A stretch of DNA of 7,531 nucleotides from a virus (IMGVR_UViG_2529292715_000018), one strand, 5' to 3'. Numbered from the stretch's first letter, positions 5,758 to 7,531 are shown. The notes: a model not told the origin generated them from the sequence alone. Translations and numbers: made by a program.

Positions 5758-6122
5758 TGATTAATCGAACCAAACTGGAGCACATTCTCGAATATGCCAG
5801 GCAGCAGAAATGTATTGGGCAACTTTGTAAAATTCCACCAGGAGATATGGTTGAAATCGTGGAAATGGCCATGCGTAAGGCTGGCAACTCTCCGGTAACT
5901 CTGGCTGGCTGGATAAGCTGTAGTGATGCAGTTCCTGCTGAATATTGCGATGTGATTCTTCTCGATGATCTCGGGAATGTATTCCCCGGTTCCTGGGATA
6001 AGGTTTTTTGCCCCACTCGTGGCGGGAATAAGATGGCTTTTGTGGACAAAGACGGCGTTGAAGTAGAGAGCTCAACTCACTGGATGCCGCTACCGGAACC
6101 ACCGCAGGAGGTGAATCAATGA
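5757..6122 (+). CDS. DUF551-domain phage protein
   Basis: C-terminal THWMPLPEPP and GWISCSDAVPAEYCDVILL match the DUF551 pattern as recalled. Translationally coupled to the upstream gene. Confidence 0.8.
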   Translation: MINRTKLEHILEYARQQKCIGQLCKIPPGDMVEIVEMAMRKAGNSPVTLAGWISCSDAVPAEYCDVILLDDLGNVFPGSWDKVFCPTRGGNKMAFVDKDGVEVESSTHWMPLPEPPQEVNQ

Positions 6123-6202
6123 CCTGGCCTGAGGCATTCACCACGGTAGGAATTGCGATGGCGGTGGCGCTGGTGGTGTATTCGATTTGCCGTTGGGGTT
6201 AA
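6119..6202 (+). CDS. Small hydrophobic peptide (27 aa, MTWPEAFTTVGIAMAVALVVYSICRWG), putative single-TM membrane peptide
   Basis: ATG overlaps the upstream stop (ATGA). Strong SD AGGAGG 8 nt upstream. Followed within 10 nt by an intrinsic terminator. Below the ORF-track length cutoff. Confidence 0.4.
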   Translation: MTWPEAFTTVGIAMAVALVVYSICRWG

Positions 6203-6209
6203 CAAACAA

Positions 6210-6240
6210 AAACCCCGGATTGATGGTCCGGGGTTTTTGA
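6210..6240 (+). terminator. Rho-independent terminator
   Basis: Hairpin AACCCCGGA...TCCGGGGTT followed by TTTTT. Confidence 0.75.
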
Positions 6241-6408
6241 AGGAAACAAAACAGAAACAGCAATTGCCGTTACCTGTTGTTACCATGGCAAGTAAACGTA
6301 TCTCAGGCGAGCGCATTGCGCCGTTCTGACGCAGATAAATTAGCCTGGATAGAAGGTGCTGGCAATAAAAAATAGCGTTTTCTTATCGGTATCGGTAAGA
6401 TTGCTGCG

Positions 6409-6420
6409 GGTGCTTGAGGC
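6409..6420 (+). promoter_or_regulatory. Putative 5' end of hok mRNA (tac-like element GGTGCTTGAGGC)
   Basis: Resembles the 5' end of plasmid R1 hok mRNA (GGCGCUUGAGGC) as recalled. Complementary to a 3' element at 6782-6793. A possible -10 (TAAGAT) lies at 6396-6401. Confidence 0.5.
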
Positions 6421-6454
6421 TGTCTGCCTCGGGCATGCCACTGTAAGGCAGACA

Positions 6455-6550
6455 GAGAAAAGCCCCAGTTAACATTACGCGTCCTGCAAGACGCTTAACA
6501 TTAATCTGAGGCCCAATCTATGTCTCACAAATGTAGGTTAGCCTCTTACG
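6455..6550 (-). ncRNA. Sok-like antisense RNA, putative; boundaries approximate
   Basis: By analogy with hok/sok loci the antisense RNA is encoded opposite the mok start and leader. An inverted repeat GCGTC...GACGC (6479-6494) and a T-rich stretch on the minus strand could form its 3' end. Promoter not confidently identified. Confidence 0.35.
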
Positions 6551-6732
6551 TGCCGAAAGGCAAGGAGAAGCAGGCTATGAAGCAGCAAAAGGCGATGTTA
6601 ATCGCCCTGATCGTCATCTGTTTAACCGTCATAGTGACGGCACTGGTAACGAGGAAAGACCTCTGCGAGGTACGAATCCGAACCGGCCAGACGGAGGTCG
6701 CTGTCTTCACAGCTTACGAACCTGAGGAGTAA
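6520..6732 (+). CDS. Mok-like reading frame (70 aa) containing hok in frame
   Basis: ATG at 6520 opens a frame running into and through hok, the arrangement recalled for chromosomal mokC/hokC. Confidence 0.55.
   Translation: MSHKCRLASYVPKGKEKQAMKQQKAMLIALIVICLTVIVTALVTRKDLCEVRIRTGQTEVAVFTAYEPEE
6577..6732 (+). CDS. hokD: Hok/Gef-family type I toxin (51 aa), HokD/RelF-like
   Basis: MKQQKAMLIALIVICLTVIVTALVTRKDLCEVRIRTGQTEVAVFTAYEPEE: single TM helix plus conserved RKxLCE...GQTEVA motif. Matches HokD (RelF) as recalled from memory. SD AAGGAG upstream. Confidence 0.85.
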   Translation: MKQQKAMLIALIVICLTVIVTALVTRKDLCEVRIRTGQTEVAVFTAYEPEE

Positions 6733-6781
6733 GAGACCAGGCGGGGGAGAAATCCCTCGCCACCTCTCATGTGTCAGGCAT

Positions 6782-6793
6782 CCTCAACGCACC
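6782..6793 (+). promoter_or_regulatory. fbi-like 3' element of hok mRNA (CCTCAACGCACC)
   Basis: Reverse complement GGTGCGTTGAGG pairs with 6409-6419 with a single-nucleotide bulge. Confidence 0.5.
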
Positions 6794-6799
6794 CGCACT

Positions 6800-6823
6800 A
6801 AACCCGCTTCGGCGGGTTTTTTG
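6800..6823 (+). terminator. Rho-independent terminator of hok transcript
   Basis: Hairpin AACCCGC-TTCG-GCGGGTT followed by TTTTTT. Confidence 0.75.
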
Positions 6824-7007
6824 TTGCGTGCTGAATACGCAGGGTGAAAAATAACCATATATTTGATTATATACACAACAAAAAATAAAAGTCATTGTAC
6901 TTGCACATTAAACAATCAAATATACGGCGTGAAATAAATATTTTTCAGATTAATATTTTTGTCTCTATGTGGATATAACCGTTTGTACTTATAAACCTGG
7001 AGGCATC

Positions 7008-7220
7008 GTGGAGAAAATAAAGAAACTATTTAGTAGCAAATACGCAGTCATACGTCGTGATGACCTGTCAGTTATAGTCGAAATGGATTACTTCCCTGAA
7101 ACCCCAAAATCAATAATGTATCGTAATGGTCGAAAGGCAATTTTTTTACCGATGAGGGTAAGTGACATTATGGGAAATGATAAACTGCTGGATGAATTGC
7201 GAGTCAGAGCATCCTGTTAG
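7008..7220 (+). CDS. Hypothetical small protein (70 aa from GTG 7008; 83 aa if GTG 6969 is used)
   Basis: SD GGAGG 4 nt before GTG at 7008. Preceded by an AT-rich promoter-like region (6840-6990). Stop at 7218-7220, 2 nt before the IS1 terminus. Function unknown. Confidence 0.45.
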   Translation: MEKIKKLFSSKYAVIRRDDLSVIVEMDYFPETPKSIMYRNGRKAIFLPMRVSDIMGNDKLLDELRVRASC

Positions 7221-7222
7221 TA

Positions 7223-7531
7223 GGTAATGACTCCAACTTACTGATAGTGTTTTATGTTCAGATAATGCCCGATGACCTTGTCATGCAGCTCCACCGATTT
7301 TGAGAACGACAGTGACTTCCGTCCCAGCCTTGCCAGATGTTGTCTCAGATTCAGATTATGTCGCTCAATGCGCTGAGTGTAACGCTTGCTGATAACGTGC
7401 AGCTTTCCCTTCAGGCGTGATTCATACAGCGGCCAGCCATCCGTCATCCATACCATGACCTCAAAGGCCGACAGCAGGCTCAGAAGACGCTCCAGTGTGG
7501 CCAGAGTGCGTTCACCGAAGACGTGCGCCAC
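7223..7531 (-). mobile_element. IS1 element, partial (terminus at 7223; continues beyond window end)
   Basis: Terminus GGTAATGACTCCAACTTACTGATAGTGTTTTATGTTCAGATAATGCCCGATGAC matches the IS1 inverted repeat as recalled. InsB C-terminus is encoded on the minus strand. Confidence 0.9.
7238..7531 (-). CDS. insB: IS1 transposase InsB, C-terminal part (partial at window edge)
   Basis: [94 protein letters not shown] matches InsB with a few substitutions relative to the K-12 isoform as recalled. Confidence 0.9.

Follow-up and report, generated by a model that had tools for sequence, protein, structure and literature searches.

A structurally complete hok/mok/sok-type toxin-antitoxin locus of the hokD/hokW subgroup in a Rac-like lambdoid prophage remnant

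Layout of the locus and its genomic setting

The window analyzed here is a 7,531-nt stretch of viral DNA (IMGVR_UViG_2529292715_000018), and its region 6408–6825 carries a toxin gene, an overlapping upstream reading frame, a putative antisense RNA gene, and the cis-acting elements of a hok mRNA. These were defined by profile matches, by minimum free energy (MFE) and constrained folds, and by comparison with a set of 22 diverse loci, alignment A1, from Escherichia, Kluyvera, Pseudocitrobacter, Photorhabdus, Pantoea, and plasmid R1 (sources: one-genome-per-species contigs, plasmid R1, and hokC). The features are as follows.

6373–6378, + strand: poor hok −35, TAGCGT, with an A-tract at 6364–6374
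6396–6401, + strand: putative hok promoter −10, TAAGAT, read from the sequence, 7 nt 5′ of the inferred mRNA start
6408–6419, + strand: tac (translational activator) element, GGGUGCUUGAGG; inferred hok mRNA 5′ end and start of the RF01794 match; nearly invariant in the 22 diverse loci
6420–6455, + strand: 5′ leader hairpin (MFE folds)
6458–6528, − strand: putative Sok antisense RNA gene, ~71 nt, with a 5′ tail, a long hairpin, and a CUUUUC run
6460–6468, + strand: ucb/anti-SD (AAGCCCCAG), pairing with the mok SD (closed form) or tac (open form) in the full-length MFE, the Rfam consensus, and constrained folds
6508–6511, + strand: mok Shine-Dalgarno (SD) GAGG, 8 nt 5′ of the mok ATG; invariant in A1, ucb-paired in the full-length MFE
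6520–6732, + strand: mok ORF, 70 codons, in the hok frame; PHROG 251 “MokW-like host killing”, 113 bits
6535–6563, − strand: putative Sok promoter, −35 TTGCCT (6563 to 6558), 17-nt spacer, −10 TAACCT (6540 to 6535)
6541–6545, + strand: dcb (GCCUC), pairing with the mok SD in the open, translatable form (Rfam consensus, constrained fold); invariant in A1
6562–6567, + strand: hok SD (AAGGAG)
6577–6732, + strand: hok toxin CDS, 51 aa; Pfam PF01848 HOK_GEF, 82.9 bits (cut-off 22)
6715–6718, + strand: UACG motif at Tyr47-Glu48, a TadA A-to-I editing site (Tyr to Cys recoding); invariant in 22/22 A1 sequences
6740–6761, + strand: stable 3′-UTR hairpin (MFE; conserved in A1)
6782–6794, + strand: fbi (fold-back inhibition) element, CCUCAA-C-GCACCC (duplex energies and MFE)
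6800–6825, + strand: intrinsic terminator of the hok mRNA (terminator scan), an 8-bp stem (6800–6819) with 5 G-C pairs and a T run

The automated annotation marks the hok CDS alone (“hokD”), gives “none” for the leader features, and leaves mok, Sok, tac, and fbi unmarked. An earlier note made from the sequence had described a complete-looking hok/mok/sok locus at this place, with a Hok ORF matching HokD/RelF, an in-frame mok-like ORF, a leader resembling R1 hok mRNA, a clean terminator right after the 3′ element, and both ends intact. All of this is borne out. The hok CDS has zero nucleotide differences from K-12 hokD and its product is identical to K-12 HokD, the mok ORF at 6520–6732 shares the hok frame, the leader at 6408–6582 matches Rfam RF01794 over the whole model length with 118.1 bits (gathering score 59; E = 3e-27), and every cis element is present from the leader start at 6408 through fbi and the terminator, whose stem and T run follow fbi and end at 6825.

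The surrounding window is a Rac-like lambdoid prophage remnant, syntenic with Rac-like prophages, with genes that include a DnaC-like ATPase, DUF977, an HNH endonuclease, and DUF551. Over 5877–7429 the identity is 99.74% both with Shigella flexneri SFBU1023 (CP182556) and with “E. coli” ECMA0423; zero differences fall within the hok locus, and positions 6400–6830 are matched base by base in a S. flexneri chromosome. The window contains three IS elements: an IS3-family orfA at the left edge (1–303), IS2 (~818–2073), and IS1 (7223–7531). The start of IS1 at 7223 is given by its transposase Pfam match and by the homology of an IS-free relative, which ends at 7222; it lies ~400 bp past the terminator, the distance that the earlier note had assigned to the nearest IS.

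Several further observations concern the rest of the window. IS2 interrupts an O-like replication gene (ORF 407–997), IS1 is inserted 2 bp past the stop of a phrog_1813 ORF (6969–7220, also given as 6969–7217), and the IS load is typical of Shigella. The ORF at 6969–7217 was considered as a candidate for Rem, the gene downstream of K-12 hokD, and was rejected, as BLASTP showed no similarity and the ORF belongs to phrog_1813. A 27-codon hydrophobic ORF at 6119–6202 (MTWPEAFTTVGIAMAVALVVYSICRWG) overlaps the stop of the DUF551 gene by ATGA and has no match in Pfam or PHROG; a 13-bp bidirectional terminator lies downstream of it (6207–6239). Because homology to the prophage of E. coli AVS0790 (L001) starts exactly at 6119, we take this position as a mosaic-module boundary.

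The toxin and the mok reading frame

The Pfam match and the identity to K-12 HokD place the 51-residue product in the Hok/Gef family, with its length of ~50 aa, N-terminal transmembrane helix, and conserved Cys. The identical protein is encoded by 80 IMG/VR loci. The layout of mok, overlapping hok and preceded by its own SD, is the same as that of the annotated mokW and mokC. In all three mok lies in the hok frame, whereas in R1 it lies in the +1 frame relative to hok, and as a consequence translation of mok here would yield an N-terminally extended Hok.

Among 72 unique hokD-type sequences the hok CDS is nearly invariant at the nucleotide level, synonymous sites included (minority fraction ~0.003), and the UTRs vary by 5–10%; the near invariance suggests either RNA-level constraint or gene conversion within the CDS. 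The local fold around the UACG motif at 6715–6718 is weak (−7.1 kcal/mol). This motif has been described (bioRxiv 10.1101/2025.08.07.668861), and editing of hokD mRNA has been reported at 6% (PMC12214031).

Leader, 3′ UTR, and promoter of the hok mRNA

The RF01794 model is named “sok antitoxin” but matches the sense strand: it represents the leader of the hok mRNA in the open form (tac/ucb and SD/dcb pairings), not the Sok RNA, and it ends at the hok AUG. In the MFE folds the 5′ half of the leader hairpin (~6425–6436) is able to pair with tac instead, which would give a metastable nascent-transcript hairpin at 6410–6436. Within the 5′ hairpin the pair G6422-C6453 of this lineage replaces the A-U of most relatives, a compensatory change. 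At the other end of the mRNA, the stable hairpin at 6740–6761 is likely, by analogy with R1 (PMC9841398), the stop point for 3′ exonucleolytic processing. A sub-threshold Rfam match to isrK, an Hfq-binding sRNA of Salmonella prophages, spans the 3′-UTR hairpin, fbi, and the terminator (6741–6822; 30.6 bits, gathering score 50) and is probably a generic hairpin-plus-terminator resemblance.

The hok promoter differs from that of most relatives. About 90% of hokD-type loci have a TAGAAT −10 with a TTGCGG or TTGGCG −35; the TAAGAT variant is common to L001, L047, L084, and L089, and the sequence upstream of it is unrelated to that of the majority. Region 6364–6401 is a lineage-specific replacement, with a recombination junction just upstream of the −10, and is found in five records. 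A sigma-70 consensus promoter scan passed neither the hok promoter nor the Sok promoter.

Pairing of the mRNA ends

The earlier note had drawn attention to the complementarity of GGTGCTTGAGG (6409–6419) and CCTCAACGCACC (6782–6793) and had proposed a folding calculation for the long-range 5′/3′ pairing. The complementarity is confirmed and gains an extra G-C pair (6408/6794), so that the 5′ element GGGTGCTTGAGG (6408–6419) pairs with CCTCAA-C-GCACCC (6782–6794) over 12 bp with one bulged C (6788). The fold, run on 6408–6823, likewise returned the tac/fbi duplex. Specifically, the MFE is −176 kcal/mol (z = −7.25; 0/100 dinucleotide shuffles as stable), and the first 12 nt pair exactly with 6782–6794, while GCCCCAG at 6462–6468 takes up the mok SD. 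The duplex of tac with the 3′ UTR has an energy of −21.1 kcal/mol, compared with −12.9 ± 2.0 in shuffled 3′ UTRs, and is equalled by only 0.05% of 2000 shuffles.

An 11–12 bp duplex between the start of the leader and a site 45–65 nt past the stop codon is kept in all 22 diverse loci, as seen from duplexes computed for each A1 sequence separately because MAFFT placed the 3′-end bulge inconsistently. Two positions show compensatory changes: at position 4, Escherichia and Kluyvera have U-A where Photorhabdus and Pantoea have C-G, and at position 12, G-C is found in hokD, hokC, and Pantoea loci, with A-U taking its place in Photorhabdus and in several loci of Kluyvera type. Wobble intermediates also occur among the 22, and the bulge is movable. 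Within the hokD prophage group no covariation of tac and fbi is visible, since the elements are too conserved there, and the distant genera were needed. For many relatives at a greater distance (hokC-type, Kluyvera, and others), the BLAST alignment with the window stops at 6794, the last base of fbi. A second tac-complementary segment just upstream of fbi, UCAGGCAUCC (6773–6782; 10 bp, 2 G-U), looked conserved in Escherichia hokD and hokC and was rejected: across the 22 family members it was no better than shuffles (fraction at least as good, 0.04–0.98).

Energetics of the proposed conformational switch

In constrained folds of the full-length RNA, the closed form (tac/fbi plus ucb/SD, −176.0 kcal/mol) is favored over the open form (tac/ucb plus SD/dcb, −163.0 kcal/mol) by 13 kcal/mol. 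Without fbi (3′ end at 6779) the two are isoenergetic (closed −147.3, open −146.9), and for an RNA with its 3′ end at 6764 the MFE itself has the tac/ucb stem. When the RNA ending at 6779 is folded unconstrained, its MFE contains the metastable-type hairpin at the 5′ end and stays closed, keeping ucb/SD by 0.4 kcal/mol, and for this reason the switch is permitted by thermodynamics rather than predicted. The modeled RNA thus has alternative closed and open pairings that are exchanged on loss of fbi, the Rfam consensus being the open form. This energetic switch, as reproduced in silico, agrees with the mechanism described for the hok mRNA of R1 (PMC9841398).

The putative Sok antisense RNA and its target

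The putative Sok gene coincides with sokW of phage 933W, which is annotated as a misc_RNA (L138 659–729) and has been detected by Northern blot (PMC8621323). The hairpin of the putative Sok has a fold energy of −30.7 kcal/mol. The start site read from the sequence is 6528, 7 nt downstream of the −10. The promoter sequence is the same as that of 933W; hexamers, start site, hairpin, and U-run are all identical between the two, and the hexamers fall below the consensus-scan threshold. The architecture is shared with R1, which has TTGCGC, a 17-nt spacer, and TATCCT (L136). The Sok-target loop corresponds to mok codons 2–4 and contains a YUNR motif, CUCA, at 6524–6527.

Among the 72 unique hokD-type transcripts, all with identical Hok, variability peaks at 6511–6535, the one hypervariable stretch, which lies at mok codons 2–5 and hence at the Sok 5′ tail and target loop, where there are at least 14 alleles. 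Three copies in S. flexneri SFBU1023 (L087, L089, L093) have three different alleles of this segment, with 6–8 mismatches in 17 nt, and three copies in ECMA0423 (L084, L085, L092) also have three different ones.

Comparison with named hok systems

The closest named systems are mokW/hokW/sokW of the Stx2 phages 933W and VT2-Sakai (Sp5), which are 92.8% identical in nucleotide sequence over window positions 6400–6799. They have the same layout and boundaries, with a Sok gene (putative here) of 71 nt, a mok of 70 codons in the hok frame, and a hok of 51 codons. The sequences of tac, ucb, both SDs, dcb, fbi, and the putative Sok promoter agree as well, and these systems too reside in lambdoid prophages. 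The differences are in the Hok C-terminus (…FTAYEPEE here, …FVDYESEK in HokW, with five residues differing at positions 45–51), in the allele of mok codons 2–4 and the Sok 5′ tail (MSHKC here, MLNTC in mokW), in the hok promoter region and the terminator past 6799, which are unrelated, and in the position within the phage genome. A 93%-identical ortholog of the present locus is already annotated and experimentally tested, hokW-sokW having been shown to be a toxin-antitoxin system of type I (PMC8621323). Overall, the locus shows 92–99% identity to hokD/hokW loci and, with its residence in a lambdoid prophage, belongs to the hokD/hokW prophage subgroup.

The hokD (relF) gene of the E. coli K-12 Qin prophage is 98.5% identical over 6563–6821, which covers the hok SD, CDS, 3′ UTR, fbi, and terminator. 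The earlier note had stated that K-12 hokD sits downstream of relBE without a 5′ regulatory region of its own, and this is correct: the alignment runs from 6563 onward only, and everything upstream (hok promoter, tac, ucb, the Sok gene and its promoter, and the mok start) is missing from K-12, with relBE in its place. The window holds the ancestral complete form of K-12 hokD.

The hok/mok/sok (parB) system of plasmid R1 has the same set of elements, the same predicted switch, and the same Rfam model, with a tac/fbi duplex of −15.8 kcal/mol compared with −19.8 kcal/mol here. R1 Hok is a distant homolog; HokW, the close relative of the present Hok, is 44% identical to it (PMC8621323). The R1 system also differs in the lengths of the leader hairpin and of the Sok hairpin, and it resides on a plasmid, where its post-segregational killing is proven. 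Chromosomal hokC/mokC/sokC (gef) is ~75% identical in nucleotide sequence from tac to fbi (6400–6794), with mok in frame, the same tac, and an fbi that differs by one wobble pair; it has a shorter leader and is a core-chromosome locus adjoining dnaJ/nhaA. In K-12, hokC is severed from fbi by IS186A, which ends 19 bp past the stop codon, and its match to the window reaches only 6756; the IS position is in line with the earlier note's statement that other chromosomal hok loci have IS elements close downstream. The conclusions of Pedersen and Gerdes (1999) are confirmed in secondary sources (PMC7232551, PMC12214031).

Proposed mechanism

Based on the features and folds given above, we consider, with a probability of about 0.88, that 6408–6825 holds a type I toxin-antitoxin locus of the hok/mok/sok family (hokD/hokW subgroup) that is both canonical and structurally complete, and that this locus has the replication module on one side and the late-regulation module on the other, within a Rac-like lambdoid prophage remnant of a chromosome of Shigella flexneri type. 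It is an ordinary copy of the well-known “host-killing” module of hok/sok toxin and antisense-RNA antidote, whose hokD/hokW type is found on lambda-like prophages in the majority of E. coli and Shigella genomes: real, canonical, and already known.

The mechanism that we put forward for this locus takes each of its steps by homology from R1 hok/sok and hokW-sokW. Transcription would start at 6408 and end at the terminator near 6825, giving a hok mRNA of ~416 nt, and in the nascent transcript a metastable hairpin would tie up tac locally. Once the RNA is full-length, tac (6408–6419) would pair with fbi (6782–6794) and ucb (6462–6468) would sequester the mok SD (6508–6511), a closed form that would be neither translated nor bound by Sok. 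Slow trimming of the 3′ end toward the 6740–6761 hairpin would then remove fbi, upon which tac would pair with ucb and the mok SD would enter the SD/dcb hairpin, whose loop is the presumed Sok target. As long as Sok is present (6528 to 6458 on the minus strand, an unstable RNA from its own promoter), it would pair with this target and RNase III would cut the duplex. Once Sok has decayed, mok would be translated, leading to Hok or an in-frame Mok-Hok product and to depolarization of the inner membrane. By analogy with hokW-sokW, such a locus likely aids lysis when the prophage is induced, stabilizes the prophage, or does both.

Is this copy functional?

We have high confidence that the locus is complete and built for canonical function, and moderate confidence, as far as its sequence can indicate, that it is active in vivo. 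The earlier note's suggestion that this copy may be functional agrees with the undamaged state of the conserved regulatory elements but has to be set against a hok promoter that is non-consensus in this lineage. Relative to the 72 unique hokD-type sequences the locus has zero private substitutions; the minority bases that it does carry all lie outside tac, ucb, the two SDs, dcb, and fbi.

A less probable alternative, though one to be taken seriously, is that the locus looks intact and is phenotypically silent, with hok mRNA very low or absent from a weak promoter or, as in other intact chromosomal hok loci, with no killing when Sok is lost; the prophage module would in that case carry it along as a conserved passenger without effect on the cell. 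The variant −10 and poor −35, unlike those of ~90% of hokD-type loci, and the negative consensus scan speak for such silence, but the variant promoter retains the critical −10 A2 and T6 and the correct 7-nt distance to the start, and it recurs in at least five independent records and in E. coli genomes whose leader is 100% identical. Under normal conditions, growth was unaffected by deletion of hokW-sokW (PMC8621323), and intact chromosomal hokA, hokB, and hokC gave neither post-segregational killing nor activation by rifampicin, according to the account of Pedersen and Gerdes (1999) relayed in bioRxiv 10.1101/2025.08.07.668861; yet a single chromosomal copy of R1 hok, driven by the weak promoter native to it, was lethal without Sok (PMC9841398). 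Also on the side of silence, the prophage is riddled with IS elements (IS2, IS1, and the IS3-family element), and because of this degradation the role of hokW-sokW in phage release may no longer apply. Nevertheless, all of the post-transcriptional elements are preserved without private mutations, which is hard to explain without selection on the mRNA, and we prefer the reading of a locus built for canonical function.

It is improbable that only Sok matters, that is, that the locus is kept in order to neutralize hok mRNAs from other prophages or plasmids, whether resident or incoming, as a form of immunity or cross-talk, the toxin being irrelevant. In favor of this, the S. flexneri genome with this locus has at least two further hokD-type copies (L087, L093) and such leaders number two per genome in the median and up to eight. 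However, no part of the transcript varies more than the Sok 5′ tail and target, and the alleles of copies in the same genome differ by 6 and 8 of 17 nt, which argues against cross-neutralization. Moreover, the resident Sok RNAs of K-12 gave no protection against R1 hok (PMC9841398), and the hok CDS is perfectly conserved. That the 5′/3′ complementarity is a chance match, with the hok mRNA regulated only locally via Sok and mok, is effectively refuted already: the helix is short (12 bp with a bulge) and one other site in the 7.5-kb window has a similar duplex energy (minus strand, ~2170–2205), but the energy is rarely reached in shuffled 3′ UTRs (the 0.05% above), the pairing is present in an MFE with z = −7.25, it is conserved across genera with compensatory changes, and for R1 it is experimentally established (PMC9841398).

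Returning to a canonical toxin-antitoxin locus, we tentatively suggest, as a less probable reading, that the hypervariability of 6511–6535 may reflect diversifying selection for orthogonal Sok/hok recognition specificities. If so, several prophage-borne hok copies could coexist without cross-neutralization, this window carrying one allele, or the Sok of incoming phages could fail to disarm a resident hok.

Distribution and significance of the intact module

The earlier note had implied that an intact hokD is rare, which is not supported. The part of the leader that is absent from K-12 (6408–6562) is present at ≥80% coverage in 4262 of 5426 complete E. coli genomes (median 2 copies, maximum 8), and the full leader is found in ~75 of the 80 IMG/VR prophage contigs that encode the identical Hok, the truncated K-12 form in 3. 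Hence the intact hokD-type module is the common form in prophages and E. coli genomes and truncated K-12 hokD is the exception. A recent survey likewise found hok to be enriched in prophages (bioRxiv 10.1101/2025.08.07.668861).

The importance of the locus is slight beyond its correct annotation. It does provide useful context where K-12 serves as the reference, the complete module being the usual form in prophages. If active in Shigella, the locus could contribute to retention of the prophage remnant, stress-induced membrane depolarization, or phage exclusion, but in none of these cases would the biology be of a new kind.

Near-identical E. coli-type hokD loci also occur under unexpected host labels, namely Acinetobacter idrijaensis and Xanthomonas pisi (L097 and L102, both short contigs) and “Actinobacillus phage vB_Apl-pPE4” (H124, 97.4% identity), and these labels probably reflect contamination or mislabeling. 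In some loci of Enterobacteriaceae and Photorhabdus (L108, L116, L125), two tandem hok loci lie within 1.5 kb.
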